Below, in pieces: positions 86 through 19,630 of a stretch of 20,000 bases of DNA (the stretch's first letter is position 1; every line of letters starts with the position of its first letter). The DNA is from Vicugna vicugna (taxonomy: Eukaryota). Under the pieces are notes generated by a model that was not told the DNA's origin, made no database searches, and saw nothing but the letters and a program-made list of their open reading frames with translations. A program made the position numbers and the translations under genes. The stretch spans positions 45,241 through 65,240 of the forward strand of contig PNXW01001157.1 of NCBI GenBank assembly GCA_013265495.1, read 5' to 3'.

Positions 86-619
86 TCTTTGGAAATTTGC
101 TAGAAGACTCATGGGGTTCAGCAGATAGTTGTCTTCATGGTGAAGATTCATAAGAGCGGTGCAGGAAGGATCCACAACAGGATTATAAGGGAAAAGATGC
201 AGACAGAGTTGGGGAGAATCCATGTCCAGGCTTCCTTATGCGCTCTCCCTCCCATGAGAGGTCACACAGAGTGCACGCTTCCCCCGGAACAAAATGCAGC
301 AACCTGTGTGCATTGTTTGTGCCCAGGGAAGTGTGTTAGGCACTCAGCACCTGACCTGAGGTTTTTACTGAGGACTGGCCACACAGATAACCTCTGTTTA
401 GAACATACTGGAATTCTAGACCTTAGGTAGAAAGTTGGAGGTCAGCATAGGACATACTGTTGCACAGACATTCTAGGGAGAATGAACTGACCTCATTAGT
501 TAACCGGTGACTAGGGGCACTCAGAGCCAAGTTTCCAGGGGCCAGATGAAGTCCGACCTTACAAGCAAGCCAATCTAACGATAGTCGTCTCTGAGCTTTT
601 GTGTTAACTCTTCCATACA
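86..619 (-). mobile_element. MER21-family (ERVL-class) LTR remnant
   Basis: Diverged match to recalled MER21-type consensus (gtcacacagag.., cccagggaag..ggtttttactg..ctggccac, ..tgttaactctt..aca terminus). Left boundary approximate. Confidence 0.65.
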
Positions 620-2001
620 CTACTTATATATAAAACCTTTTTTACTTTTAAAAAGACTTTGAAGTAATAACTGGTTAATATCTAGTGCAGTGAGATCATG
701 CAGCTTTATACTGATATGGATGAGCTTTAAGGCATTTGGGGGTTTTAAGTCTCTGCCTTTAGCTTTTGCTGCAATGATAAGAAAAGAAACTGGGGTTGAG
801 TCGGAATAATGTTCTTAGAGTTGAGAGTAGAGCAGGGAGGTGGTGGCATGTCCTGCTGCCCAGATGGCCATCATGCTACAGACCAAGGGGTCTGCTGTGG
901 TGAGCGTCTGGGTGAAGGTCTCCATCCTCTGGCTAGTTGGTTATTTCAGACCATAATTATCTCTACATAAAGCATACGTGCATATGCAGGAGTTCAGTAG
1001 TTTTTACTAAGCACTCACATGATGTTTAACATACTAACCGGTTTCACCCCTCCCTACAAGAACATTAACTGATCAGTCTTAGTCTGCTTTTAAACATGGG
1101 AAAGTCAAGGCTGTGTTTGTCATCTTGACATTTCCTATATTACTAATTCAGTCACCTCAGCGCTCAAGTTTCCTGTCTGTGAAGCACTTCCATAGCCTCC
1201 ACGTGTGGGCTTTGAGGTATATATGGCCTTCAAGAAAAACTTCTCATTTCAAAAAGTAAACTCCCTCTGTGTGGGTCCCAGAAGGGCTCCACTTTAGAGA
1301 GTGCTCTCAGGTGGTATGACTTTCCATCCCAGTGGCTGCTGAACAGTGAAGAAGAAAGGAATTCATTGACTCAAGGGCACAATCTAGAAGTTAAAGTTAA
1401 AGGGGGATGAATCCTATATAGTTCTCATTAACATATATAATCGATAATATTGTCTAGTTTTGTGGAATGACTTTATAATAAAATGCATAAGTTTTGAGAA
1501 CTTGTACCTGTGTTGGGGGCTCTTTGACATTTTCAATAGTTTACTTTCAGCGGCTATTTTATTTACTGACTTCCTACTAGGTTCACATGCTTGCTTTTCC
1601 CTCTCTTTTTTATTAATGTGCTGCTGCTGTTCTGCAATAGCAGTGGTTTGTTTGTATTTATTTTCAAAACCTTTGCATGGAAACGTATGGTTTTTGTCTT
1701 TTGTGTACGTGTGAATGAGCCACATGCTGATGTGTGCTTCTGAGTACCTTCACACATGTACTCTCTCTCTGCTTGCAAACAAAAATAAAGATAAGGGACA
1801 GTATTTATGTAAACTGGAATACTGATAAAGAATACATACCAAATATGTTTACACTTACATAGTATTTAAAGTTGGCTCAGTACATTAGACGGAGCTCATG
1901 TAGCATTTACTTAAATCTTGTGTTTTACTCTGGTTTTTCAAATGTGGGATGAATGGATGACATGGGATAAATATATACTCTGAAAAATATAAATAATTAT
2001 A

Positions 2002-2075
2002 CATACTCTGACAAATACATGATCTCATTACATCTCAAATTCATACTCTAATAAATACATGATCACATTATATCT
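2002..2075. repeat. Degenerate 40-bp-period direct repeat (2 copies)
   Basis: catactctgacaaatacatgatctcattacatct (2002-2035) versus catactctaataaatacatgatcacattatatct (2042-2075). Confidence 0.75.
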
Positions 2076-2343
2076 GATACATGACCATGAACTCTTTCCT
2101 ATGTTTTATCATTCAAACTCATGGCTTTCCAGTTTTGAACTTTATTTTTTCCTCATCGTAGGACATATAATCAAAGTAGTTTCCTAGAAATATTTTTTAC
2201 ATTTCTATTTTGGATTCTATATTCTAAAACCAAAGTGCCCATATCGAGACCTCAGGCTGATGTTTATTACAGCATAGTGATCACAGTCATCATTCAAGTT
2301 GTGCTTTGTGGATAATACACACATTATGGAGTTTTCTTTATAG

Positions 2344-2412
2344 AAAATGTGGAGGACAGCATGATGTAGAGGATGTACCTTTACACAGGTAAAGCTCAGG
2401 GTCAGAAGGAAG
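2344..2412 (+). pseudogene. KIF21A: KIF21A-like exon (~exon 25), disrupted
   Basis: tag|AA AAT GTG GAG GAC AGC (ENVEDS) ... GAG GAT GTA CCT TTA CAC ... TCA GGG TCA GAA GGA AG|gtaaga. It is 69 nt versus 61 expected from the recalled human peptide. TAG at 2367-2369 in the upstream frame and TAA at 2390-2392 in the downstream frame. Confidence 0.85.
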
Positions 2413-2775
2413 GTAAGAGAGTCTTCAGAAACTTAATAGATTTGACTTATTTCTTTAATATTTTAATATATTTAGCTGTTGCTTCAAACAATTACCTTAA
2501 GACAAATAATTTTGGAGTTTATGACTAAGTGAAGACACTAGAAACAGTAATAGGGAAACCAAACTGAGTAACGCTTAAAACTTCAAAACCTTTAAAAATA
2601 ATGGAATATTTAAAGAAGGAAAATGAATTATTTTAATTCGCTTTGATTTTGCATATTGTCATTCTGTGCTTTCCACAGGCATAGGAATTTTTTCCCCATA
2701 TTTATACTGAGAGAGGACATATAGTTTTCTATAGTAACTTCCCTTTTCATCTTGTGGTTAATTATTTGCTCATAG

Positions 2776-2830
2776 CTCACTGTCTTCAGACCTTATGAAG
2801 CTTTGTGGTGAAGTGAAACCTAAAAACAAG
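2776..2830 (+). pseudogene. KIF21A: KIF21A-like exon (~exon 26), intact 55 nt
   Basis: catag|C TCA CTG TCT TCA GAC CTT ATG AAG CTT TGT GGT GAA GTG AAA CCT AAA AAC AAG|gtaagg = [18 protein letters not shown]. Confidence 0.93.
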
Positions 2831-3469
2831 GTAAGGAGAACTGAAAACACCAGGTAACATTTTTACTGCTGTTCTTTATGATTTCTATTGAACACGGAGG
2901 GCGCAGGCTCGGCTCTTCACAGGCTCACAGGTGGGCATGCTTTCACCGAAGCTTTCACGTGTGAGAAAGTGTTTATTATACTCCCCTTAGGAAAAAAGAT
3001 ATATTGAACAGTTTCTCCTTTATGGGGCTTGTGACCTACTCTATTCTTGCACTTTTCCCACCAGATAAGATATGATTATGTAGAGCAATCTTTCAAAATA
3101 GTTAGATTGATAGGAGATTTTTGAAATTTAGCATTCTAATATGTTCTTCTGTGTTCCTTATTTATTTTGCTTAATTGTATCCAGAGGTGGTTTGAATAGG
3201 CCAACTCTTAATCATCATTTTCTTTTAAAAACTGAGGCTATAATGGATACTTGTGAAGTTTAAAAAATATGAGTAATATACTGTTAAATGTGTAAGATGC
3301 ACACGATATATTTCAGATTGCGTGTTGGCAGCTACTGGGTGAATTATAACCACCTTAAGATGTTTTTCGGATTTTTGCAGTGCTTGGTAAATATCTGTTG
3401 AATGAATGGGTGGAATCAGGACCTGAAAGATCAGTACTGTGCTAGTGGACAGGATGGACTTGAGGCCCA

Positions 3470-3745
3470 CAGTGGTCAGCCAGGTGATGCAAATGAATAT
3501 TTCAGTTGGATGTAAGACAATTAGCAGGGGTCAGCATGATTACCTGAAGAGGACATGCCCCATCTAAAACAAGTGCCACCACTCCACTATTGCTCATTTT
3601 TGCCATGATGGAATATGGGCCTTAGAGAAGCCTTAAATATGGATTTCAATGGAGAATTTCTTTATCTTTGAAATACTGGGCTTGCCAATCAAAAAACATC
3701 TGCAGGCTTCATGTGTGGTCCTTGAGCTACTGGCTTGGTAACGTG
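3470..3745. mobile_element. MER103-like hAT-Charlie DNA transposon remnant
   Basis: Motifs gatgtaagacaat, catgccccatctaaa, ttgccatg..gggcc..agagaagcc..ggattt and aaaaacatctgcaggc..gtggtcc match the recalled MER103C consensus. Confidence 0.6.
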
Positions 3746-4235
3746 TGGTTTGCGTCTTATTATTCTAAGTGACTAAGCAGAAGGTACCCAGACTCAAAGA
3801 AAACATTCTAGTGTAGTTTGGATCCAGTCTTAAGTGGGGGAGAAAATCTCTTAAGGTGACTTTGGGTCTCAGGCGCTGTGAAGGCCTCGCTATTCATGCC
3901 CTTGCAGGATGCCAGGGAGAGACGTGAAGGCGGGGCCTCAAGGCCGTCTCCTGAAAACACCACTGTGGTTAGGAAGCCCGGGGAAAGATGGTTCCACTGG
4001 CAGCGGAGAGGACTGGCAGGATGAAAGGCTGGCCTGCAGGGCTTGTTCTTCTTTCTTTTTCTTTTTGGCAGTGAAGGGTCATCATCTTTATCTGCATTGG
4101 ACACGATATTTAAAATATGAGTCTTGCCAGTTCTGAGAAGAGAAGTGCTCCCAAACCTGCATATACCCAGCACTCTCTTCTCCAAACACAAAGGAGCCCA
4201 CAGCATTTCTCAGAGGGATGCTCAGCTGACAGCGC

Positions 4236-4552
4236 TGAAGGCAGCCCCCGCCAGGGCCAGTGTGACAGTAATGAGAACCAGGAGACCCACAACGTCTTCT
4301 TCCTGTAGTTCTGGGCTCCGTGAGGTCTTGTTCAAGTGCTGCCTTCTAGCAAGCCTCGACCCTCCAGCCCGCCGCCCAGCTGGCCGCCCTCGCTGCTCCG
4401 CAGCTGCCGCTCGTCCTCGGGCTGCGCGGCGCTCGCGGGGGAGCCCGGCCGGCCGGGCCGGGAGGCTGCCAAGGGCGCGTGGCCGCTGGCGGAGGCGGGC
4501 CCGCAGGGCCCGGGGTGGGGGGATGCGGCGCTCGCTGCCCAGCCGGCTCCAC
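4236..4552 (-). pseudogene. TMEM163: Processed (retro)pseudogene of TMEM163 (zinc transporter-like protein), exon 1 and exon 2 coding part
   Basis: Minus strand gives (GTG)EPAG..GHAPLAA..QPEDERQLRSSEGGQLGGGLEGRGLLEGST*TRPHGAQNYRKKTLWVSWFS/ITVTLALAGAAF, matching recalled TMEM163 QLEEERQVRISESGQFSDGLEDRGLLESSTRLKPHEAQNYRKKALWVSWFSIIVTLALAVAAF. The exon1/exon2 junction (4355|4354) has no intron. Start codon is GTG, TGA at 4334-4332, 1-nt deletion near 4273. Confidence 0.9.
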
Positions 4553-4750
4553 TGCGCGGGGCGGCGGATCCCGGCAGCGAAGATGAGCCCCGTCAGAAGT
4601 GCGAGGCCCAGCGGCTGGGAGCGAGTGGAGGGACGGACCGAGGGCGGGCGGGCGCCCGGAGCGGAGGTGCGGGCTGCAGGGGGAAGGAGGGGGTTGGTGC
4701 GCGTCTGCAGGACTTACTTTCCGGAAGTTTTCTCGGGCTCTCCGCCACTC
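4350..4750. promoter_or_regulatory. CpG island-like segment (TMEM163 5' region carried by the retrocopy) with ETS and GC-box motifs
   Basis: Very GC- and CpG-rich (11 CpG in 4381-4440 alone) within AT-rich intron. CCGGAAGT at 4721-4728; overlapping GGGCGG at 4642-4651. Activity not demonstrated. Confidence 0.55.
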
Positions 4751-4785
4751 CTTTTGAACAGCAAAGATGCCTAAAAGGATCTCAA

Positions 4786-4925
4786 ATCATTTATTCTTCA
4801 CTCATTGAATAAACAAAATTGACTACGTATTTTAAATAGGTCTGTACCAGCACTATGTTAAATGCAGAGCATGCGAAGTTGAATACAGCAGGGTGTCTGC
4901 GCTCTAAAGGTTTATAATCTGGTAA
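4786..4925 (-). mobile_element. LINE-2 3' end fragment
   Basis: tcatttattcttcactcattgaataaaca..ctgtaccagcactatgttaaatgc..ctgcgctctaaaggtttataatctggt resembles the antisense L2 tail. Confidence 0.55.
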
Positions 4926-5334
4926 ACACCTTGATTATCTGTTAATACATTAGTGATAACAACCAACTGTAAGCATTAACAACAAGATAGTCCCTTGGTT
5001 TTCCAGGAGTATGGAAGGGAATGCTTATGGCGAACTTAGATTCTAGGGAAAATTAACCTTCTCCTGTCTCACCATGCTGCCAAAAGCTAGGATGGGCTGG
5101 CGCTGGCTATCCAGCAGGCAGATTAAACATCCAGTTAAGACATCAGGGGGCAGGGTCATGGAAATGGAGATACAAATATAAAAATTGATATTAAAATAAA
5201 ATTTACATTAAATAAATCATCTAAGCATGGGAAAAATCAAAATTTAGTTGAAAGTCCTTGCAATTATCTTTTGGTTTAATTTCTTTCTTTCTTTTTTTAA
5301 ATGAGACATCGAGGGAGCTGGCCATGAGTGTCAG

Positions 5335-5538
5335 GATAGCACAGTAATGTTAGAGGCAGATTGCCTAGTTTTGAATCTGACTTTGCCACTTACTGTGTGT
5401 CTTTGGACATTTAGCTTCTGTGTGCCTCAGTTTTCTCATTCGTGAATTGGGATGATGATAGTATATGCTAATGTAATAAAGTGTTTAGAACAATTTCTGG
5501 CATCCAATAAGCATAATCCAAATGTTGGCTATGATTAT
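5335..5538 (+). mobile_element. MIR SINE
   Basis: MIR core: ttgaatctgactttgccacttactgtgtg..ctgtgtgcctcagttttctcatt..aaagtgtttagaacaatttctggcat..aaatgttggctat. Confidence 0.8.
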
Positions 5539-5640
5539 GACCCCTGAAAGTCTTATCTGGCTGTAGCTCTGGCGTATCACTGTCTTACATGCTATGTTTG
5601 ACACACTTGCTAGGAAAAGACATGCTAAATATTTTTACCT

Positions 5641-5789
5641 TCAGACACTAATGCAGGAGATGCCTCCTTGCCTGGCCCTCTTACACCTGTTGTGGAAGGG
5701 CAAGAGATTGGAATGAATACTGAGACCAGCACTTCTAGGGAAAAAGAGCTCCCTCCCCTGTCTGGCCTCCCTTCTAAGGTAGGTAGCAT
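5641..5789 (+). pseudogene. KIF21A: KIF21A-like exon (~exon 27), 5'-truncated
   Basis: Translates to [49 protein letters not shown], ending AT|gtaagt. The expected N-terminal [20 protein letters not shown] part is absent. A usable acceptor tttttaccttcag ends at 5644. Confidence 0.9.
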
Positions 5790-6470
5790 GTAAGTCTGGC
5801 CCAGCTACACTAACTTCCTTTCTTTTGACTTTTTTTTAAAATATGCATGTTGCTAATTTCTTGCTTCTATTTTTTTTGATTATGTAAATAAGATCTTCAG
5901 TTTTCAAAGTAATTTCTGCTAGGTGTGGTGTCCCCTAATTTTTTGTATTCAGAATAATTTAAATGAGATGATTTTGTTGAAATTGCTTTGTCCTATTTCT
6001 AAGTTTTAGGGTCTTTCTTAAAGAGTATCATTTTTATTAAGGCTGAGATGTGAATTACAGACAAAATTTATTAAGAAACAGATGTAGGTTAAAGTGACAC
6101 CTATAAAGTCATTACATCAAACAGAACCTTGAAGACTCTTCAGTTTGCTCTAAATCATGGTACATCCTCATTCCAAGAGCCTGGGCAGGTGTGTAGACTT
6201 TTGCTGACACTGTTAAAGAAAAATGCAGATGTCGATTACCAGCTTAATACATTTTGAACTTTCCTAATTCTTTGTCTTGAAGACATTGCATGTCTGGATG
6301 TCTGGGATGAGTGTGTACACAAAGTAGTGTTATTGTGTTATTAAAGAGTTGAAGGAGGGAACATTTCACATCTATGATAATCTTAACAAGAAACATTCTA
6401 TTCAAAACAGATTTTATTTAGAAATTGTTCATAATTATCTTGAGAAGTAAGATTTTCCTACACAGGCCAG

Positions 6471-6490
6471 TGTGTGTGTGTGTGTGTGTG
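6471..6490. repeat. (TG)10 microsatellite
   Basis: Directly visible. Confidence 0.95.
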
Positions 6491-7606
6491 TTTGTTGTTA
6501 GTTGTATTAAAACTAGATCAGTCATTCACTGGTAAAGATGTTTAATGACTTTTTTTCAAACTAACTCTCACATATGATCTAGCAATTGATTTATTGGATG
6601 AACACATGACTGCACTGAGAAATAGTGCCAAAAAAGTGGCACACACTAGATGACTCTGCAGCTAATAAAATATAACAAACTCCCCACCCCTAGCTTGAAT
6701 ATCTCTTTCCCATAACTTTCTCCATCTTATGAAGGTATTTTCATTGTCTTCCATTCAGTAAGCCCATCTGCTACCTTTAGTTCTAAAATTAATTTTGATG
6801 GTGGCAGAACTTTCTCGCTGTGCTTGAGGTGGCCTGTGTGATTAACAATTGAATTTGCTGATACAGATTGCTAACCAGTATGGCTTATGGCTTCAGTGCT
6901 TTTTTGATAAGATAACAGTAGAAGAAATGCTTTTGGTGAAGATAGTGATACAGAACTGAGATCAGATTTTAGGAACTCCCAGGTGTTCAGCATTTAGTCT
7001 GTCAGATGAATAGAGACTTTTGGAACTTCAAGATTAAATCTATGACCTGGAATCCAGAATTCAGGTAATACCTTCTTTTTGCCTTTTTCTTTTAAATAAT
7101 GTTATCATTTGTGACAGGTTGTGGAAAATATCTTATACATACTGTCTCTTCACATGACTTATTTTCAAGTTTTCATCAATTAAGATGCTTGTGTAATTCT
7201 GTACATATTTAAGAGATGGTCATGTGCTGGTGCAATGACTCTTATAACCCATTATTGCAGGACTTTGATTGCATAAAATAAAATAATTTACCTAAGTAGG
7301 CCTTATGATTTAAGTGATGCAGAACTTCTAAAATGTAATTTCCTCTGGTTAGAAAAATCAGGCACATGAAGTTTAGTTACATTTAGTTCTCACTTTCAAG
7401 TAGGAATCACTGTAAGCCCATTCTGAGCATCCTGCTTTCTAATTCTTTAGTGTTTTTTTCCTTATTAGTATAACTAGCCAAGGACAGCAAAATTTCATTT
7501 CTTTCCAATTAAAGTTTATTACCACTATACACAAAAATCAGTCTTAAATTGTTAGTTACATAGCCATCATTCAAGAATATTTTTTAACCAAAATTTATAT
7601 AGCTAA

Positions 7607-8099
7607 TGTTGACTGAAATAAACATGCAGCCTAAAAGTTAAAAGTTATGTTTTATTTGTCGGGTGGGCTCGAGCCGGGATGACAGCCTCTCAGATCGCTC
7701 TGAGGGACTGCTTCCAAGAGGTAGGGGAGGAGCTAGGATATATAGAAGCTTTACAACAAAGACCAGGTAGTTGGAACAATAAAGGATTGCTTGTTATCTA
7801 AAGAGAATCAGGCATCTCAAGTTAAAGAATTTAGTGCTTTTCTATTTATGGGAGGAAGCAAACATTTGGGCTCACTGAATTCATTCCTTTGACAAGCACC
7901 TAGCTATCTAGGGCCAGTATCCTGTCCTTTCTTATTCTGAGTCTGCTTAAAGGGCACCATTGTGAGTGGCTGCAGGGGTGGGCTGCAGACCTGTCCCCAC
8001 TAGGGGGTGGCGGCAGCCGCTGATGACTTGGTTTCAGCATTCTATGTTTACTGATATGTTTGCAGTATTTTCATTCACATTGCAGTATTTTCGTTCACA
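7607..8099 (-). mobile_element. ERV1-class solo LTR (MER41-like, artiodactyl type)
   Basis: TG...CA termini flanked by a 4-bp target-site duplication CTAA (7603-7606 and 8100-8103). Minus-strand AATAAA near the 3' end (forward ttttatt ~7651-7657). GC-richer than flanks. Family name is from memory. Confidence 0.8.
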
Positions 8100-8591
8100 C
8101 TAACTAATACTTAAATACTAGTTAAGTAAAATATTTTTGTGCTCACCTGTAGTATTTTTTTCTGACTCTGTAATAATAATTAATTAAATTTTCTTGTTTC
8201 TCATATTCTGATATTCTAATATTTTTGTTCTTGCAAAATTGTAAAGGCTATTTTTCTTCAACTAAAGCAGTTTTAATCAAACTTAAGCACATTTAAAATT
8301 TAAAAATTCATGTTAGCCTTTTGGTCGTATAACATTGATGTTTATGTTCAAAGATAACAGGCTTATATATTTTTGATAAGATTGACAATTTAAAAATTAA
8401 ATATAAAGTTGTCAAGCTCCCATTAATTAAAAATAACTTGTGTAATATTTTCCTATCCCAGTTCTATCTTTTATTCCCTAGTAACCTTTTTCAAGTTCTA
8501 GTTAGTAATCTATTAAAAATTTAGGTTGAATTGCCAAAGTTATATGTATATATTTAAAATTAGATGACTACAGAATCTTTTTTTCTCTTAG

Positions 8592-8695
8592 TTCCAGACA
8601 GTCGTCTCTATCAGAAAAACCAACAGAGCCTCCCCCATAACAAGGAGAAGGGCATGTGAGAAAGCAGAAAACCCAAAGACCAAGGAACTAAGGCA
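8592..8695 (+). pseudogene. KIF21A: KIF21A-like exon (~exon 28), frameshifted, GC donor
   Basis: ttag|T TCC AGA CAG TCG TCT CTA TCA GAA AAA CCA ACA GAG CCT CCC CCA TAA (stop at 8638-8640). Homology continues one base shifted (ITRRRACEKAENPKTKELR). The phase-2 donor position reads ca|gccagt. Confidence 0.88.
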
Positions 8696-9752
8696 GCCAG
8701 TTGCTAATGCTTTTTTACCTGATAGATTGTATAAAATGTCAGCTGCACTGAGATGCTAAAGGACAGCAGTGGGATGATTTTCCATATTCAGGCTGGCTCT
8801 GGGATTTCAACTTAAGACAGTCAAATCAGCTGTTGGCTTGTGGTCTTCTGATTTTCTTGGCCACACACATACCTGTAAATAAAATCAAGCAACTGTTCCT
8901 GATCATGTACTCTGATTTATTTTTCAATTATTTGTGTATGTCATTGTAGAGCTAATATAGCTTTGAGGAGAGGTTTATTAAAACTGTAATTCAAATAGTC
9001 TTCTAGAAAACTTTGAAATTAACTTTGACTGTTATCTGATAAAACAGATATTGATTTCACCTCTTTAAATTGGTTGAAAAAAATCTAGTGTTAGAAGATG
9101 TGTGAGTTATGCTATTTTCTTGCTGTTCTCTCATATTTAAATGGATATTATCCTTAATTTTTTTTTTGTTGAAATCTTTTAAAAGCTATGTGTGTGTTTT
9201 CTGAGGGTTAACTTGTTTTGTGAGGCTTAGTCTGCCTAACAGTATATAATATAATCCGATGGTCCACTTACCTGGGCATTTGTAAATTGCAACACCACAA
9301 CATGCAGAAAGTTATAAATGGGTTAGAGCCACTGTACCTTTCTACCATGTGGCACACTCACCTTTCCCTCAGGTCACCTAACGAACTGCATATGGCAGGT
9401 AGATCCCTGACATGGTCTTGAGTGAGAGCATCAATGGCAATCTCCTTTCAAATATTGGCAAAGCTAAGTCTTCAATATAAAATAAATATAAAAAGAAGTC
9501 TTGGGGTATTTTCTATACCCAAGTGAATAACCTTATACCATCCCCCTACCCGTACCATCATGCACACTCTCTACTTTGACCACTGGTTTAGCTGCCTTGA
9601 ATATCATGGAAATTATTCTAATCATCCTTGCTTCCTGTATTTAAAGATGTAATTTACCTTTTTTTTTACTGAATCAAATATCTCAAGAATAATTAGGAGA
9701 TAAGGGATGGAGCAAATAAGTAATTTAAAAATAAATGAATTTATCAGTTGAA

Positions 9753-9812
9753 TAAGCAAATCCCTCTTAATCTCTCAGGGTCTGTTTCCTCATCTATAAA
9801 GTGAGCATCTTG
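9753..9812 (+). mobile_element. MIR core fragment
   Basis: cttaatctctcagggtctgtttcctcatctataaagtgag resembles the MIR core. Confidence 0.55.
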
Positions 9813-9939
9813 GTCTCAATTGTAAAATTGTATAATTTTAAATTTGCCTTGCTTTATTCATACCAAGTTTAGATTTCAGCAGACAGAACTTTTTCTTTAG
9901 TGCCATCTTGTGGCCAATGTAACACAATCCAATGGGAAA

Positions 9940-10135
9940 TTTTTTTTTCTTTACTTTTTTTATTGAGATGTGTCCATTTCCAGTGTAGAGCACAATTTTT
10001 CAGTTGTACATGAACATACATATATGCATTGTCACATTCTTTTTCACTGTGACCTACCACAAGATACATTTCCCTATGCTATGCAGCAGAATCTTGGTTA
10101 TCTATTCTACAGATGCCTGTCAGTATCTACAAATT
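9940..10135 (-). mobile_element. 5'-truncated LINE-1 3' end, antisense
   Basis: T-rich tail (9940-9961) followed by ttcagttgtaca..tatatgcatt..cacattcttttt..ttccctatgctatgcagcagaatcttggttatctattcta, typical of an artiodactyl L1 3' UTR in reverse. Confidence 0.7.
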
Positions 10136-10286
10136 TGAAAAAATTTTAATTAAATTGTTCAGAGTGCATTTTATCTTATGAGAAAGAAAGGAAAGAAAGA
10201 ATTCTTTAATGAGAACCTTTTTTTTAAAAAAGCATATTTCTTATAACATTTCTAACAAGTAAAAGCCAACAAAGCCGCCTACTTAA

Positions 10287-10433
<147 letters not shown>

Positions 10434-11212
10434 TAAGTTATTATGTAAAAGAGTCCCAACTATTGATTATAATATTCCTGAGCTTTTCAATACAATCTTG
10501 AGAGAACATTTAGCCCTCTCTCTGTGTGGGAGATGGAGTCTGACTTGTGAACTCGTGCTGTACTTTATGTGTTTTTCCAGTGGGGAATGAACCATATACA
10601 CAAAATTAGATGAATTTATTTTCCTACTGAACATTATTCCCTGCTGTAGATTTGCAATGCTCCACTTCAGCACTTGCCTTGCCTTTTCCTTTTGCAGGTC
10701 AATTAGAATTGAAATATCTTTGCGATCACTTGAAGTTGAAATTTCTTGGGATTCTTCACCTTCGTTGAGCCCATAAAAGCCTCTAATCCGGCTAGCCTGT
10801 ATTGAAGAGGCAAACTATTTTACCTTTGGTGGATATAACATCTTACAGAGACCGTGTCACATATGTGTAACATGTTACCATTTGGTTGTTCCACAAATCC
10901 ACCACAAAACTTGAGTCATTTTGTTCTTGGAAAAAAAGAGTACCATTATGGGTGGAGGGGGTAGAACTCAGGGTGGACTGTTGGGGAAGAAAATTTGGAG
11001 GGCTATGGAAAATATAATTTTCATCAAATTTGAAGTGAAAAAATATTCCCACATTGAGCCAGAATCTCTCTTGTAAGAATTTCATAGTAACAGTGTTGCC
11101 ATAAGGTATTTATTAACTCTGACTTGTCTGCTTTGATTTTGAATTATAACATTGTGGATGTATGTCCTTGATGTCCAGTCTCCCACACCAATTTGTTTTC
11201 TATGCTATGATT

Positions 11213-11258
11213 TTCATATATATATATGAATCGTTCATATATATATATATGAACGATT
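11213..11258. repeat. Adjacent perfect AT-core palindromes
   Basis: ttc(at)6gaa at 11213-11230 and aatcgttc(at)7gaacgatt at 11229-11258. Confidence 0.9.
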
Positions 11259-12551
11259 TTGAAATTTACAGAATACTGCCTGGTATGTTTAGATCATGCT
11301 AAATGGCTCTGTAGACTTAGAGAGATACAACATTATTTTGAAATAATCTTTAATCTACTTAATTTATGGGTAAAATTCTTGATTAGATTTTAATATAGTT
11401 TAATCAGTAGATGATATGTCCTTTAAAATGATCTAGTTAGGTGATGTTTTTAAATTTAAAAACAAATATTAAAAGATTCTTGAACATTGTTAAATCATAC
11501 CTCTCAGTTAATTGAGAAAAGAGTAGAACATTAGGAATGTCTTTAGGAAGTCCATTTTCACTAGTGATATGAAGAATTGCTAAATTTTGTCTACCTTGTA
11601 TTTACAGTAGTAACATTTTGTCAGTCTTTTGGTAATCGTGACAGTCTAATCATAGTTCCATGTTTTTTACTGAAATAGTTTATGAGCTGCCAATCATTTG
11701 ACTGCATTACCATCTCTATAAAATAAAACTTAGAATGACTTACTACCCCAAACCCTCACCTACCTTTTGAATCAATTTCTTTGGGCCCCTTTTTGAGACT
11801 AGCATATTTCACCTGCTAGAAGTTAGGTCCCACACATTGTTTCTGATGACGTGACATGCGAGCACCCACTCTGTTCTCATCCTTCCCAAGCCTACTGTAT
11901 GACACTACATGCTAAATATTCAGTATCATAATAACCAGCCTTACTGTCAGTCCTGGAGAACTGAGGGTCAGGCTGACAGGAATGGCTCAGCTATTTTTAA
12001 AATCCCACCAAAACCTCCCCGCTGTTACTGAGGGACTGGCTAGGCAGAAGGCCACCATGTTTTTGAGATGAGTTAAATCAAAGTTTATTAAATTTTGACT
12101 GATTCGCTCCCCACGCATTCATGTATTTGTGTAACTTTCATATGAGACTCTACAGTAATTATCAAGAGGAATGAAATTCATTAATGTTTAGTGAAGTGGG
12201 AAAAGTTTCCTGGTACTAGTCAGATTAAATAGCACCTTGAAGTGATGGACTTCAGTTACCTGACGGTGTTCCTCTTCAGGGCCTACATTTTAGAAAGCAA
12301 GGACAGATAGGTTCCATGAATCAGTAATAGACCCCCCCAAATCTTGGTAGAAAACATAAGAACAAAATATTTTAGCTAATTTAGGTGTCTATTGAACTTG
12401 CTGATATCCAGCTCAAAAAGGAAAGCAGGGCCCACTAAAGGAAATGTTTGCTGTGTTTCTATTATTCATACCAATGCATCAGCTCAGCCTCAGTGTCCGC
12501 CTGTTACCATCTGTAGTCTTTCTCCTCACAATTCTGACTCTTTCCTTGTAG

Positions 12552-12590
12552 GTCTGATGACAGTGACTCTTCTCTGTCGGAGGTACACGG
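12552..12590 (+). pseudogene. KIF21A: KIF21A-like cassette exon (~exon 30), 39 nt, donor lost
   Basis: ttccttgtag|G TCT GAT GAC AGT GAC TCT TCT CTG TCG GAG GTA CAC GG|ggactt = SDDSDSSLSEVH. The donor dinucleotide at 12591-12592 is GG rather than GT. Confidence 0.87.
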
Positions 12591-13246
12591 GGACTTTCTC
12601 TCTTTCCTACTTTATGGCCTTTCAGTGATGTTTTAAAATGCCTTCCTAGAAACTTTAAGCAAGTCTCATTTTTGTTGCATTCATAAATGATAAATGTCAG
12701 TGCACTAATATTTTTAACCATAAATTTTAATATATATTAAATATATTTTTATGATCATAACTCTCAAAGTAGTGGCAGATTTTTTTGTATAATAACATAA
12801 AAAATTGTGCTATTTGTTTTCTGTCTATAACCTAAAAGTTTTCTTTAAAAGAAATTAAGTTCTAAGAAAATTAATTTCCTCAATGAATATTGCCCCCTCA
12901 AAGTGTGGGAGATGAATAAGGTAGTTTTCGTGTTGGTTTATCGATCTTAAATAAGCAGTTTATGGCAGACTTTGTGATGAAAAAAAGATATGCAAAGGGA
13001 AAAATGATACTATGATACCTAAAATATAGAAAGAAATAGAAAGAAAAAGTTTTTAAAAAATAATAAATATTTTAAACTAGTAAATGCTATTTTAGAAATA
13101 ACAATGTTGCATTTTTTTCACATTATGGATTTTTTTGGACCCTTAATTTATTTTTCTTTCTATCATTTCCTCTTTCTACTAATCATTTTGTCTCCTTTCT
13201 CTTTGCACTTTTCCCCATGTTTTATGGCCATTTTCCTGATCATCAG

Positions 13247-13261
13247 TAGATCCTCCAGAAG
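13247..13261 (+). pseudogene. KIF21A: KIF21A-like microexon (~exon 31), 15 or 12 nt via NAGNAG acceptor
   Basis: Long pyrimidine tract, then cag|TAG|ATCCTCCAGAAG|gtaggc, encoding (S)RSSR(R). This is the peptide between SEVH and GIINP in recalled KIF21A. Confidence 0.85.
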
Positions 13262-14539
13262 GTAGGCAGGGGAAGGGAGAGGAAATTAATGTCATTCAAA
13301 GAATTCCAAGATTTTACTGGTTTTGCTTGGAACAAAAATAAGCATTATTTTTTCCTTCAGATTAGATATATTGAGTAAGTTTGCAATATTTAACCTTAAC
13401 TTAAACTATTTTAAAGTTGATTTACATATTTCAAAATGTGAATAGATTAATTTTACTAGAAAAGAAATACCATGGATGTATGTTTCCAATTTCTGTTTCT
13501 TTCTATTATCTTTGATATAAGGTAATCTCTATAAAATATTAACCCTAATATTCTGAATATATGAGAGTGTTTTTCAGTATCTAATGAATAAAATTCTCAA
13601 TTTACTGTTGAAATTGTTTTTCTTCAAAGGTCTGAAAAAATAAAAGACGTAAGAATGAAAAAGAGACATCCTCTAGGGCTGCGCCATACATTAAATCACT
13701 GGAGGCAAATATTTACTTTTGTAATATTACAACCTTTGACATGACAGAATTGTGTTGGATGTTATGTCATGAGGGGAACACTTAATAGACTCTTAGGATA
13801 AAGAGAGTAATCTGAATGAAGGCAATTTTTTGGAGACATAATATTATATAACTGAGGGTGCTGTTTAGTTTTTTCTCCCTTAGGATGACTTGAGTCATTA
13901 AATGCAGATCATGCAGCTCTTAGGCTGTTAACGTGAAGTTTTTTTCTTTATAATCAGCTTCTTAGATTATGCATACATACATACATATTCTGTTTTTGAA
14001 GTAACAGTAGCAGTTGACTGTGTATTAGATCATAGTTTTCAACATGTGAAGCAATAGTTACAATTTGATGGCTTCAGTTCATAGCTTTTAAACCCCACAT
14101 CAGTTAAGATTTTGAAATGGCAGATTCAGACTTTTGAGAAGGTTTTGCTCCCATTTCAGTTCTGGTTAAATTCTTAGATTACCAACAAGTTACTGAGCAT
14201 TAGTTTCAAAAACCTCAAATTGATGCATGTATGCAAATAATACTTTGGATTTTGTCATTACACGTCCATGTGATTACAGTTCCTGGTATTATTTCTAGTA
14301 ATGAGGAACTTCCTTCATTTTTTGAAATCATTATAACTAAACCCTAAAAATAAAGGATTTTTAAAAATCCTGAGCCTAAATTTACTTCCGTTAAATTTCT
14401 GTTCATTGGCCTTTCATCAGCCTTCTTGAGCCATATTAGAATTAATCCAGTACATCTTTTTATAGGTATCTGACAGATCTTTTAAATATTCAGCCATTTA
14501 ACTGTGCTTTTGTATGCTCTCTGTAATGAAAGCTCTCAT

Positions 14540-14760
14540 ATCATCTCAGAAGTTTTAGATTCATCTGTTCCTAATAAGATATAGTCTAGGATCTGCTTCC
14601 ACAGTTTTGGAAAATCTCCCATTTTTCAGAGTTCTTCTTAGAATGTGGCATCCGGAGCTCAACCTCACTCCAGATGTGGCCTCAGCAGAATATAGTAACT
14701 CTCTTGCTTTCTTCTGAAATATTTACCTCTATTGCACAAGTCATTGAAAATGTTGGTAGG
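14540..14760 (-). mobile_element. L3/CR1 LINE fragment
   Basis: ttcttagaatgtggcatccggagctcaacctcactccagatgtggcctcagcagaatatag resembles antisense L3/CR1 sequence. Boundaries approximate. Confidence 0.45.
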
Positions 14761-15779
14761 GGAATCAAAAATTGTTAAGCCACTGATCTCATATCAATAA
14801 ACAAGCTTCTTTAGCTTGTAAATTGAGTTAAGTCCCTTTCCTACTTGGGGCATTCTCTTCTCTCTTCAACTTAAATTTTATGTTTAAATTTTTTCCATTG
14901 AATATTTTAGTGCTAGGTATGTACTTAAATGACCTTTGTTTGTAATTTTTTCTAGGCAGTGCATTGCTTTAATATATCAATTTAATACACAGGCCATGTC
15001 TGTCTTTGTTTCTGAGGACAGATTGACTAGGCATTGAAGGCCTCTTTCCAGACTGGCAGGAACATGGACCCTTTAGGTGTGATTCCTCAACCACTGGTGG
15101 AACTACCTTCCTACAATAGGGTTTTACTTACTTCATCTGCAAGGATATCATTTGAAAAGCTTTTTGTATGGACCTTTTTGGAGTCAACATATGTTGTGAA
15201 TATGACATTCCCCTAATATGCTGCCTGTTAATTCTACAAAGAACTTCCCCATGAGATTAGTGAGCTCATGTTATCTCTTATAGATGAACATCTAAGTGTT
15301 TATAATTATGTAATGTTTTCCTCTGTGAGACTCAACAAGAGTTACCCATCTGTAATCTCTGAAATCCACTATGTTTCTCCTTTCTAGAAAACTGGGTCTA
15401 TGTGTTTTATCCCCTTTATTGATCCTTTTAGTGTCCCAACAATGATTTTGCCTCCACAATGGTGTATACTTTCAAAACCTTGTGACATAATGTTTCAGAA
15501 ACAGAAGTACTGGAACTCATTGAACAAGTCTTCATTATCAGTTCTAACTTATCTTGGGCTTATATTTCTTCTGAATTATCCCTGCCCCTTGCATCATGAA
15601 GGTTGTTCTCACTCATCAAGAAGAAGGAAACAGACAGCTTAGTTTCATGCCTGCACCTGCCCTCATATTATGCCACCTGTCTTAGATGATGGGCATATTT
15701 CAGCATAATTTTTCTTATGCTCTGAGCAAAGTTACATTCATCTTATATACTTATCATGTCTTAATTCACACTCATCTTT

Positions 15780-15915
15780 AGTCTTCCTCTTACATTTATT
15801 TCAGTTCAGATCCTGTCTTAAATTCCTTTAGGATAGGGACAGTGTTTTGATAAACTTTCTATTTCCATAGTTCATAGTCCAATGGCATAAAGCAGAAACT
15901 TCAGAAATATTAAAT
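15780..15915 (+). mobile_element. LINE-2 3' fragment
   Basis: ttcctttaggatagggacagtgttttg..atagtccaatggcataaagcagaaacttcagaaatatt resembles the L2 3' end. Confidence 0.45.
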
Positions 15916-16545
15916 TTATCAGAAAGCTCCCTAAAGAGCCTCACTGTTCTCTTAAAATTTTACTCTTAAAATTTTTTTCTTTTACACTTTTAAGAGTTTT
16001 TAAAGTTTTTGCTATTTTTGAGCCATTCTCCCTTTAGAATTTCTGTCTATGTAAATATTCATATATTTCTTCAAATTGGTTTGAAATTTGCTTTCGTAGT
16101 ATTTTAGGTGGTATGTGTTACGCTTTCTCCAGGATGTATTTTTGGACATAGAATTATATTCTAGCCTGATAGAGAGTCACATCTTCCAGTCAGCCATCAT
16201 TTATACTTTCTTACCTGTCAGAATTCACTATACCTGAACAGCTCCCAATATTACTTCATGAAATTTGAACAAGATGAAATTACTAATAAGAAAATCCGGA
16301 TGCAGCACTGGCTTTGCTCCTTGCAGAAGGCACCTGCTAACTGACACCTGATTAGTCGGTGCACGCCATCACTGCTTTTACTGTTTCACACTGTGTCCCT
16401 TTGCTTAAAAAATGAGACAAGGAGCAGTATGGATTTAATTACTATTACTTGGAAAGACTTCTTAAAGTCAGAGAAAAAAAATTAAAGTAGTTTCATGATA
16501 CAGCTACTGAAGTAAAGCTTTGTTTTTTTTTTTCTCCCAGCTCAG

Positions 16546-16679
16546 AGGCATAATCAACCCACTTCCAGCTTCAAAAGGAATTGGAATGCCCCACTTCGGT
16601 GTGTGCACGTAGCTGAAGGGCACACACAGCTGTGCTCTGTGTGAGGGCTACTGATGCTCTTCTCTTCACTGGATCAAAG
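16546..16679 (+). pseudogene. KIF21A: KIF21A-like exon (~exon 32, start of WD40 domain), frameshifted
   Basis: ctcag|A GGC ATA ATC AAC CCA CTT CCA GCT TCA AAA GGA ATT (GIINPLPASKGI), then PLRCVHVAEGHT and AVLCVRATDALLFTGS in shifted frames. It is 134 nt versus 137 expected; the read-in frame hits TAG at 16610-16612; donor gtactg. Confidence 0.9.
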
Positions 16680-17028
16680 GTACTGGTTGTTGTGTCATGT
16701 GGGTACATAACAGATCTTTTAAAAAATGATTACGTTGAGCTGGTTTTGAAAAAAATGTCAAACTGCTTAAGATTCATAGGAATCTGAGAGATAATCTGGT
16801 TCAATCCCTGAATTATATAAAATACAAAATCACTGCATGGTTGGTAAGAAAGTAAAACCTCTTTTGATGCACTGTGAGTAGAATGGCACGGGGATACATC
16901 TCTCTATGGTAATTGAGCATCTAATGCATGCAAAGCCCTGAGCTTAGTAATGCAGGCTGCGTAAAAATCTATGAAAGGCCATTGCAGAATACAGTGTGAC
17001 AGAGAGAGTAAGGTGGGTAGCGGCCACC

Positions 17029-17258
17029 ATTTCTTGAGCAGTCCCTGTATGTCAGAGGCTGTACTGGACAGTATGCAAATTACATCTCACTTATTTCTCA
17101 CAACAACCCCAATGACGTACATATTGCATCCTCATTTTACAGATGAAAAAATTGAAAATTTAAGAAGTTAAATAATTTCCCCAGCTACACTTAGAAAGTG
17201 GAGGAGCCAGGATTGGAAACCTAGGTCTACTCGTCTCCAAACCTGCACTCTTAACCCC
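17029..17258 (-). mobile_element. MIR SINE, antisense, near full length
   Basis: ttgagca..tatgtcagaggc..tctcacaacaacccc..cctcattttacagatgaaaaaattga..gttaaataatttcccc..gtggaggagccaggattggaaacctaggtct..ctcttaacc. Confidence 0.85.
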
Positions 17259-17494
17259 TTTGGTAAAATGGCAGGCAACTAAAAAAATCAACTATAAATG
17301 ATTGGAAAATTTATAGACTAGGTTTTGGGGTTTCAGAAAAGGGAGAGATTATGCCAAGCTGTAAAAAATAAGGAAAGCTTTGATAAGGAGGTGTTTAAGA
17401 TGAGTCTTACAGGATTGTTGCTATTGACAGGTAAGGACAGGCAACTAAGGTCAGAGAAGAGCAGAAGCAGAGACGTGGAGGCAGATGTGGATTT

Positions 17495-17626
17495 GGGGGG
17501 AGGGGGGTTGTATAGCGCAAGTGGTAGAGCGCGTGCTCAACATACACGATGTCCTGGGTCCAACCTCCAGTACTTCTCCTAAGCAGAAATAAATGAATAA
17601 ATCTAATCCTTAAAAAAAAAAAAAAA
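17495..17626 (+). mobile_element. tRNA-derived SINE resembling camelid Vic-1
   Basis: G-rich head, Pol III A box (tagcgcaagtgg), degenerate B box (gggtccaacc), ccagtact..aaataaat body and A15 tail (17612-17626). Confidence 0.8.
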
Positions 17627-18383
17627 GGAATTTGGAAATTAAATCCTATTGAGTTGAAATGTAGAATATACATGACAATGGGCAATGAGACTAGGAAGGT
17701 GAGAAGGAAGCATGTATAAGAATTTGGGGAGCTAGTTAAAGATTTTTAGCATTTAGGGATGTTCCAAGACTCAGTTTAATCAGAAAAATTTTTGCTCATT
17801 TTCTATGAGGGAAATAAAAGAGTTTAGCTTATGCGTTGTTAATAATTGCAAGCAATTCCCCTATTAAAAAAAATTTACTCTACAAAAACATAATTTTCTA
17901 ATGATTCAAGTTAAATTGATTTCTCCAGTATAATTACACATTCAGCATGTCAGAAAAACAAAATAAAATAGTTTTGTGATTATGTTTTTTGAGTCAAAGA
18001 TAAAATCCATCCATAAGTGACTCCTGGAAAGAAACGTATGTGTATTTATGAGTATGGAGTGTTGTCAGGAGGTAAGAGCAGATTTTGAAATGGCTGATTT
18101 AGGATGGCTGTTTAAAATTCAGGGGCAATTTGGAGCAAGACTCTTTTCACATATCTATTTCAAAATTTTGTGTAATTACTTTTTTAATACCGTGTGATGC
18201 ATCCCTAGCTTTCATCCAATCCTTTACACCTGCTTTGCCCTTGAACCTGTGGCAAGTTAGAAGTTAGGAGTTAGGATGCCTGTTTCAGGTTAATGGAATA
18301 ATTACTGTTTCCTTATCTATTTTTTTCTCATAAAAGTCTAATTTAGTTCATATTGACAGTATTGCCTCTTTTTTTTGTTTTAG

Positions 18384-18564
18384 ATTGTACTTTTAAAGTA
18401 TGGAATCTGGTGACTGGGCAGGAGATAATATCACTGAGGGGTCATCCCATCAATGTCATATCTGTAAAATACTATAATTATACAAGTTTGGCCTTCACAG
18501 CATCAGCATCTTATATTAAGTTGTGGGATATCAGAGACTCAGCAAAGTGCATTCAAGTGCTAAT
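18384..18564 (+). pseudogene. KIF21A: KIF21A-like WD40 exon (~exon 33), open but diverged, 181 nt
   Basis: ttttag|AT TGT ACT TTT AAA GTA TGG ... CTA AT|gtaagt = [60 protein letters not shown]; 13 of 60 residues differ from the recalled human sequence. Overlaps ORF 18353..18568. Confidence 0.93.
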
Positions 18565-19630
18565 GTAAGTAACTTAAAGAGAAGCAGCATAAGGGGCAAA
18601 TAGCCCTTGTTTATAAATATGAGAAAAGATAGGTCTGTGAATGCATTTTTGTTTATTTATACCTGTCTACTTGCAAGTAACATTACAGTGTTTACAGTAA
18701 GAATGCCAATAAAGTAAGGTTTAAAAACCTTTTGAGAAAATAATATATAAAAGCTCAATATTAAACAGGAAGGGAGAAGTCCTATTTGATCTGTGACTAA
18801 GTACACATTTCATATTTCCTCCCTAACCAAAGGAATTAAATTTTCATAGTATTTATTACTTACATAGTTACATGCTTCAAATGAATACCACTCCTTGGAA
18901 AATGGCTCAAATCACCATAGTAGATGGTGAAGAAGTACTTTCAACACTTAATTAGCATGTATTGAGTAACTGAGAGGGTTTTTTTGTTGTTTTGTTTTGT
19001 TTCTTTAGGACTTAACACTGCCTTGGGGTTAGTCCCTATTTTGTAACTTTAGGTTGTGTAGGGTGATTGGAAGATGAGTTTGTTTTCTGTGTTTCTTATC
19101 ATATATGTCTTTAAAATGTAGAGCAGATGATTCTTTTTGTTGTAAGATTGATGAACTGTTCTACATAATTAAAATTAAGGTGAACTCTGTTGGTAGTAAG
19201 AGCAGGGAGCATAGGAGTGGTTAGTTTTTACAAATTTGTAGAGTGGGGTTATTAACATTAAATTCTATTTTGCATTTTGAGAATTACTAATTATTTGCTG
19301 TATTGAATACAAGTCTCTTGAGGGAAATTTTGTAGAAAAAGAACACTGTTATCTTATGTTAGAAATTTACCCATCCAGTTGACTCAGTAAAATCTAATTT
19401 GAAAAGATTGATTATAACTTGATATTTTAGAAGTTTACTGAGAAAATGTTCCCAAATTTAAAAATACATTTGCTGCTTAGAACTTGGCTGAGGAAATAGA
19501 AGTAAGTTATGGTTAAGCAATAGTAACTAATCCATATATGATTGGGTTAAAGTAAACAAAAACTGAAAATAATTTTAAAATTCCTCAGTGTCTTTAACTG
19601 AAAAGGGCAAATCTTACATATGAAAGGAAT

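Follow-up and report, generated by a model that had tools for sequence, protein, structure and literature searches.

How does the N-terminal part of TMEM163, which we take to belong to a zinc-efflux membrane protein family, come to lie antisense within a copy of KIF21A? This question is raised by a very GC-rich stretch on the minus strand, from position ~4700 to 4230 of the window (the whole 20,000 nucleotides of Vicugna vicugna DNA analysed here, C586:45241-65240 within a 2.03-Gb assembly of 12,405 contigs), along which a TMEM163-like N-terminus is spread over three reading frames. Amino acids 8-97 of the 289-aa TMEM163 protein (P0011) match window positions 4266-4529 (C586:49506-49769, minus strand) with 59% identity, an E value of 2.0e-21 and one TGA codon, and at the DNA level the matches to TMEM163 reach E 4.3e-74. 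The disabled TMEM163 N-terminus that a first-pass annotation had read from the minus strand is therefore borne out by significant matches of both kinds and by a broken reading frame.

We consider it very probable that window positions 4034-4720 (minus strand) represent a complete L1-type processed pseudogene of TMEM163 that was inserted antisense into an intron of a KIF21A pseudogene and was later amplified passively. The observations at this locus comprise two precisely lost introns, a poly(A) remnant, target-site duplications (TSDs), an empty site, disabling lesions and several paralogous copies; L1 ORF2p would be the enzyme behind the retrocopy. This element is larger than the extent of 4236-4750 given by the first-pass annotation; its insert begins at 4704 rather than at 4750, and the section from 4034 to 4235, which comprises a third segment of exonic origin as well as the poly(A) remnant and the 3' TSD, had been missed. 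The features are collected in the table.

Table. Features of the TMEM163 retrocopy and of the two KIF21A-pseudogene exons that flank its host intron (window positions)
Feature	Position	Strand	Basis and remarks
5' TSD	4705-4720	minus	AAAGTAAGTCCTGCAG in the window copy; ancestral form 18-nt AAAGAAAAAGCCCTGCAG; five-way alignment
TMEM163 exon 1-derived segment	4355-4704	minus	Aligned to parent C8191:1974334-1974705
Retrocopied 5'UTR	4704-4553	minus	152 nt
Degenerate start codon GTG	4552-4550	minus	Parent and multi-copy alignments
TMEM163 exon 2-derived segment	4236-4354	minus	Parent C8191:1980353-1980472; AG acceptor and GT donor in parent
Third segment, alternative terminal exon from TMEM163 intron 2 (putative)	4067-4235	minus	Parent C8191:1983204-1983377
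Degenerate poly(A) signal GATAAA	4092-4087	minus	AATAAA in parent
Poly(A) tail remnant AAAAAGAAAAAGAAA	4052-4066	minus	Missing in parent gene and in empty site
3' TSD GAAGAACAAGCCCTGCAG	4034-4051	minus	18 nt; five-way alignment
KIF21A-pseudogene exon, aa ~1127-1145	2774-2830	plus	tblastn with P0125; end inferred from the real gene; upstream of host intron
KIF21A-pseudogene exon, aa ~1164-1217	5635-5790	plus	tblastn; 5' side truncated by 144-bp deletion

The relatives of the insert were identified by searching the assembly with window positions 4100-4760 (minus strand), which returned nine matches. One of these is the window itself, three are full-length paralogous copies (C9881 with 83%, C6442 with 82% and C3947 with 79% identity), two, on C9794 and C10921, are short and concern flank or fragments only, and the remaining three are collinear on C8191 (1974334-1974706, 1980351-1980473 and 1983216-1983344, with E values of 4.3e-74, 9.2e-37 and 6.2e-29, respectively). 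These three pieces are separate on C8191 and adjoin without gaps in the window. The first of them contains an open reading frame of 65 aa between its ATG and a splice donor; its product has 70 matches at E<=0.001 among 284 candidates, the named ones all being transmembrane protein 163, with a Camelus bactrianus isoform as the best match (95% identity, 100% of the query, E 3.1e-28). The complete TMEM163 protein P0011 has ten matches in the assembly, six of which are exon matches that cover aa 1-272 on C8191:1974510-2181571. Since the protein is represented there exon by exon, C8191 carries an intact multi-exon TMEM163 gene. The other four matches are retrocopies that cover only aa 2-97 with 59-62% identity and contain one to two stop codons each. 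In this whole-assembly protein search, the exons for aa 109-272 were found on C8191 only, exons 3 onward having no match elsewhere in the assembly; the full transmembrane core that they encode is absent from the element in the window, which therefore originates from TMEM163 without being a gene for it.

The first-pass annotation had exons 1 and 2 fused, and their fusion is exact: parent exon 1 ends with ...GATCGAG/GTGAGC and exon 2 starts with TTGTCAG/GCTTAC, so that the window junction at 4355/4354 coincides with a GT-AG intron of 5,647 bp on C8191. The second junction, at 4236/4235, likewise corresponds to a GT-AG intron of 2,731 bp in the parent, where exon 2 ends with ...CCTTCA/GTGAGTA and the third segment starts at TCGTAG/ATGCTGA. 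At its 5' end, the insert starts at the position that corresponds to C8191:1974334. The GC-rich leader of about 200 nt that had been noted upstream of the start codon is of dual nature: its 152 nt nearest to the start codon are retrocopied 5'UTR, and the stretch from 4705 to 4750 consists of TSD and host intron and is also present in the empty KIF21A site.

The ends of the insert were read by hand from a five-way alignment of four filled copies with the empty site in the real KIF21A gene on C10921. The BLAST alignment of C10921 reaches window position 4717 and resumes at 4002. The empty site reads ...GGAAAGAAAAAGCCCTTTAGGCCAGCG..., with nothing in between, and contains a single copy of the TSD (AAAGAAAAAGCCCTTTAG); filled copies contain two, in the order ...GGAAAGAAAAAGCCCTGCAG, insert, A-rich run, AAAGAAAAAGCCCTGCAG again, GGCCAGCC.... 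In C3947, both TSD copies are still the identical 18-nt repeat. In the window, the 5' copy (4720-4705) is reduced to 16 nt by a 2-nt deletion and carries two substitutions, and the 18-nt 3' copy (4051-4034) likewise carries two substitutions. Counted from where the parent has its AATAAA, the A-rich run at 4066-4052 begins 20 nt further on. Hence, the comparison with intact KIF21A that had been proposed at the outset yielded an empty site, TSDs and a poly(A) remnant alike. In C9881 (L002 ~2220-2320), the poly(A) tail has grown to a microsatellite-like A/G-rich run of ~100 nt.

One element of the first-pass annotation that fails is the assignment of an L1 endonuclease site to the TTTT/GA motif at 4752-4757. 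The letters exist, but the motif lies at neither boundary of the insert; the stretch 4721-4760 that contains it is present in the empty site as well and is thus host DNA flanking the 5' end. It is rejected as the nick because first-strand cleavage must occur at the poly(A) end, that is, near 4034-4066. The L1 endonuclease consensus is TTTT/AA-like. Here, the cleaved strand reads ...GGGCTTTTTCTTT/CC (CTTTTTCTTT/CC), which is T-rich and non-canonical; with the start of the TSD blurred and the exact nick hidden by the adjoining A-run, the nick motif is either CTTT/CC or TTTTT/CT. A reverse-transcribed mRNA would have been inserted at an A-rich target, with the formation of a target-site duplication of 11-18 nt.

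A duplication of the 5' region of TMEM163 at the DNA level, followed by intron loss, would account for the sequence similarity between insert and parent, but for nothing else: two introns are gone exactly at their splice sites, the poly(A) remnant sits at the poly(A) site, the insert is bounded by TSDs and has a matching empty site, and it contains no flanking genomic sequence of TMEM163. We attach next to no probability to this route and regard the insert as the product of retroposition.

The third segment derives from a site 2,731 bp into intron 2 of TMEM163, on the same strand and downstream of exon 2, with the canonical exon 3 located ~120 kb further along C8191. In the parent, it is directly preceded by a polypyrimidine tract and AG, contains an AATAAA 20 nt before the position at which the A-run of the window begins, and is then followed by a T/G-rich stretch. 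The third segment thereby looks like an alternative last exon that is equipped with a separate poly(A) site. If read in frame, it would add just Asn-Ala-Asp-Phe-stop after exon 2. The template is accordingly best pictured as a short TMEM163 mRNA made up of exon 1, exon 2 and this alternative last exon with its own AATAAA, and a template that ended there would explain why the copy has a full 5' end and yet encodes only the N-terminus, the first third of the coding sequence. Such a short isoform would have to have been expressed in the germline.

It is very improbable, in our judgment, that the third segment was instead joined to the others through template switching by the reverse transcriptase, or that it stems from a chimeric RNA. 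This possibility draws on the fact that the alternative exon is used by no annotated TMEM163 isoform among those compared; by eye, the tails of the predicted short or variant isoforms show no homology to it and are unlike the third segment. Moreover, the segment begins with G in each of the four copies and with A in the parent, a mismatch at the junction for which one substitution must be assumed. It leaves unexplained, however, why the segment is collinear within TMEM163 on the same strand, 2,731 bp downstream of exon 2, and why its parent sequence starts right after a polypyrimidine tract and AG and ends 20 nt after an AATAAA; furthermore, the third-segment part of the query had no matches in the DNA search other than the parent locus and the retrocopies. 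The alternative terminal exon hence remains the preferred reading.

We also recorded word sharing between the alternative-exon region (a 401-base stretch, L043 9000-9400, corresponding to C8191:1983100-1983500) and sequencing runs. Among the 24 runs listed, six are recorded as RNA; these share 0.47-0.76 of the sampled words, and several of them are labelled as reproductive-system samples, values that have no bearing on splicing or expression.

The reading frame of the insert is broken many times over. The lesions listed by the first-pass annotation are all real: alignments with the parent and among the copies place GTG where the parent has ATG, the Arg codon CGA has become TGA at 4334-4332, in frame in exon 2, and exon 2 has lost one nucleotide at ~4273. 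That list was incomplete, as two deletions (of 2 nt and 1 nt) and a 5-nt insertion also disrupt the frame in the exon 1 part. The distribution of these changes among the copies is uneven. Only the window copy has the TGA; the ATG-to-GTG change and the 2-nt deletion are common to three copies and not found in C3947; and the exon 2 deletion, the 1-nt deletion and 5-nt insertion in the exon 1 coding sequence, and a 15-nt indel in the UTR are common to all four aligned copies. There are at least four frame-breaking indels, and since three of them are common to all four aligned copies, the disruption of the frame predates the amplification of the host segment. The TMEM163 insert has no coding function and is, in the KIF21A pseudogene, an ordinary processed pseudogene.

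As for the host, it is a KIF21A pseudogene of the unprocessed type. An open reading frame on the plus strand (18347-18568) gave 80 matches among 108 candidates, with KIF21A as the best at 80% identity and KIF21B at 59-70%. In a tblastn search, the rabbit KIF21A protein (P0125) matched the window from 2774 to 18562, its aa 1127-1419 following one another in sequence along the plus strand. It follows from this order that the retrocopy is antisense to its host and that it lies in the intron between the two KIF21A exons given in the table. The host aligns to the introns of the real KIF21A with 81-89% identity and has kept the exon-intron structure; it covers only the 3' part of the gene, namely aa ~1107-1419 in the window and the flanking sequence aligned with it; on C8145, the homology extends to aa 1646. 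A deletion of 144 bp relative to KIF21A (window ~5580-5640; in C10921, the gap lies between 12436126 and 12436271) has deprived the exon that begins at 5635 of its splice acceptor and its first 55 nt. The contiguity of the high-scoring segment pairs suggests that this deletion is common to all six copies that span the position. The exon at 16535-16679 contains a frameshift and a stop codon. The KIF21A copy in the window is dead, and the description of the locus as a pseudogene within a pseudogene, with a TMEM163 retrocopy antisense in an intron of a disabled plus-strand KIF21A copy, holds. As a side observation, window positions 7595-8106 correspond to an interspersed repeat of ~500 bp that occurs more than 30 times in the genome (91-94% identity); since the paralogs C6442 and C2129 skip 7574-8100, the repeat seems to have entered the window copy alone and at a later time.

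The intact KIF21A gene is located at C10921:12417034-12483043 on the minus strand, where 15 of the 32 reported matches cover aa 15-1638 with 79-98% identity; this list of matches comes from a stricter first search, and some exons are missing from it. The empty site (12437201-12437223) lies between the intact exons at 12438526-~12438470 (aa 1127-1145) and 12436181-12435969 (aa 1146-1217).

The window in its entirety is part of a KIF21A-derived segmental-duplication family of at least five diverged copies with 79-93% identity, members of which were found on C9881, C6442, C3947, C9794, C6005, C1036, C2129, C4396, C4779, C8145 and other contigs. Many of these contigs are small (two members, on C9881 and C8145, reside on large ones), which suggests a poorly assembled amplified region. 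All five pseudogene copies that reach the insertion site are filled, and the one functional gene is empty. Four of the filled copies (C586, that is, the window, and C9881, C6442 and C3947) are filled at both junctions; C9794 could be read at the 3' junction only, since this contig starts inside the insert. The partial copies on C1036, C2129, C1169, C3722, C6005 and C7970 end short of the site.

Over ~3.2 kb of flanking sequence, the copies differ from the KIF21A intron by K2P distances of 0.139-0.143 and among each other by 0.030-0.097; distances of 0.080-0.097 separate three copy lineages, and C9881 and C6442 are only 0.030 apart. The corresponding distances between the inserts and the TMEM163 parent are 0.137-0.151. 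These data point to an order of events in which the target of the insertion was an intron of the founder copy of a partial, unprocessed KIF21A duplicate. On the stem leading from this founder, the antisense retroposition and, probably, the 144-bp deletion took place; a burst then produced at least five copies, and a late duplication (K2P 0.03) followed. The retrocopy was thus carried passively, by segmental duplication, to at least five paralogous copies. Neutral rates in the range of 1-2.2e-9 per site per year would put these steps, as a very rough estimate, at 30-70, 18-48 and 7-15 million years.

The empty state of KIF21A could also have come about if the retrocopy first resided in the intron of the real gene, was duplicated along with it, and was then precisely excised between its TSDs, or if an empty allele became fixed at KIF21A. 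Direct repeats of 16-18 nt could indeed mediate a precise deletion, and the divergence of the insert from its parent (0.137-0.151) about equals that of the flanks from KIF21A (0.139-0.143). These two divergences are, however, not directly comparable, because constraint acts on the parent lineage and the flanks evolve more slowly than the GC-rich insert. Precise losses are rare, and the KIF21A site is a clean single copy of the TSD with no scar. We therefore deem this scenario hardly credible and maintain that the insertion into the founder duplicate is very likely the course of events.

The branching order among the copies is less clear-cut. The flanks yield a tree with unresolved branching (26, 21 and 11 shared-derived sites for the three resolutions; FastTree support 0.51), and in the insert tree C3947 is outermost (13, 5 and 4 sites; support 0.977). 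A deletion of 2.1 kb (window 326-2452), in the place of which a short inverted fragment is found, is common to C9881, C6442 and C3947; the window, C6005 and the real KIF21A retain this segment. The grouping implied by the 2.1-kb deletion conflicts with the insert tree, which hints at an exchange of sequence among the copies, be it gene conversion or a mosaic make-up, or else at a rapid burst.

The exon 1 part of the retrocopy raises the additional question of whether it is inert. CpG islands are customarily delimited by a length of at least 200 nt, a GC content of at least 0.5 and an observed/expected CpG ratio (o/e) of at least 0.6, and the 350 nt from 4355 to 4704, with a GC content of 0.80 and 49 CpGs at an o/e of 0.89, have the composition of such an island. 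In all four copies, the GC content of this part is 0.75-0.80 and the CpG o/e is 0.88-0.96, compared with 1.05 in the parent and 0.18-0.26 in the flanks. In three paralog pairs, 12.5-22% of the CpG sites differ in the insert versus 35-39% in the flanks (Fisher p values of 0.008, 0.020 and 0.002, from three non-independent pairs with 96-114 CpG sites), so that CpGs of the insert decay about half as much as those of the flanks. Non-CpG G/C sites change at a similar or slightly faster pace in the insert relative to the flanks. As indirect evidence, this pattern fits a partial protection from methylation-driven decay, as would be expected for CpG-dense DNA. In a single pair of copies, A/T sites changed ~2.5 times faster in the retrocopy (4067-4704; 33 of 207 sites) than in the flanks (126 of 1973; p = 7e-6); that GC-biased processes cause this excess would be a guess.

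Judged by its base composition and substitution pattern, the CpG-rich fragment might be more than a relic, and each copy could hold a germline-hypomethylated orphan CpG island or promoter, a notion compatible with the origin by retroposition and one that we regard as rather unlikely. The high CpG o/e kept in all four copies, compared with that of the flanks, the lower CpG-site divergence of the insert in three pairs, and the fact that its non-CpG sites are not slower all speak for it. According to the part of PMC4772013 considered here, ~3% of expressed retrocopies inherit the parental promoter, and many retrocopy promoters overlap CpG islands. On the other hand, the upstream promoter of the parent is absent from the copy, the CpG counts are small (96-114 sites), and relative to the parent, CpG sites change 2-2.5 times more than other G/C sites. 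The GC content is moreover decaying, with equilibrium values, estimated from small numbers of terminal-branch changes, of ~0.56 for the exon 1 part, where just 11 W>S changes enter the estimate, and of 0.40 for the flanks. With the same reserve, one may envision that the retrocopy brought one half of the TMEM163 CpG island, the transcribed one, into a methylated and AT-rich pseudogene intron, that this fragment persists as a self-maintaining, germline-hypomethylated orphan island in all of the at least five copies, and that antisense transcription could start from it throughout the KIF21A pseudogene family. If this doubtful proposition were true, the family would amount to a natural multi-copy experiment in which a CpG-dense sequence stays unmethylated for tens of millions of years through its sequence alone.

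When the locus is viewed in the context of known systems, the insert shares with L1-mediated processed pseudogenes the intronless copy of an mRNA, the poly(A) remnant, the TSD at an A/T-rich target, the location at another locus and the decayed open reading frame; the general mechanism by which such retrocopies arise is described in the part of PMC4772013 considered here. It differs from the usual L1 retrocopies in three respects: its template would have been a short isoform that ends at an intronic poly(A) site, it has a full 5' end but contains only the first 105 of ~289 codons, and it was multiplied by segmental duplication rather than by repeated retroposition. The KIF21A host resembles unprocessed pseudogenes and segmental-duplication families in its exon-intron structure, its intron homology and its disabling lesions; it is distinguished by its role as a host, by its restriction to the 3' part of the gene, and by its at least five diverged copies, many of them on small contigs. 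With orphan CpG islands, the exon 1 part has in common a 350-nt stretch (GC 0.80, o/e 0.89) away from gene starts and a reduced CpG decay; unlike these, it represents the transcribed part of the parent's island rather than the upstream promoter.

Full-text searches of one literature library found no paper on a TMEM163 pseudogene or retrocopy among the matches listed, as judged from their titles and abstract openings, none on KIF21A among the matches listed for its pseudogenes, segmental duplications or ampliconic copies, and none that links KIF21A to a Y chromosome transposition.

In mammalian genomes it is common for a processed pseudogene to lie within another pseudogene, and the TMEM163 retrocopy in itself matters little; its uses are modest. 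The CpG-island composition kept in several independent copies offers a small natural test of how far CpG-dense DNA resists methylation-driven decay outside its native promoter. As a copy of an mRNA, the retrocopy may be taken as a fossil trace of a short TMEM163 transcript, one with its 3' end at a poly(A) site in the intron that follows exon 2. For the KIF21A-derived segmental-duplication family, finally, it provides a clean presence/absence marker by which events in the history of this family can be ordered.
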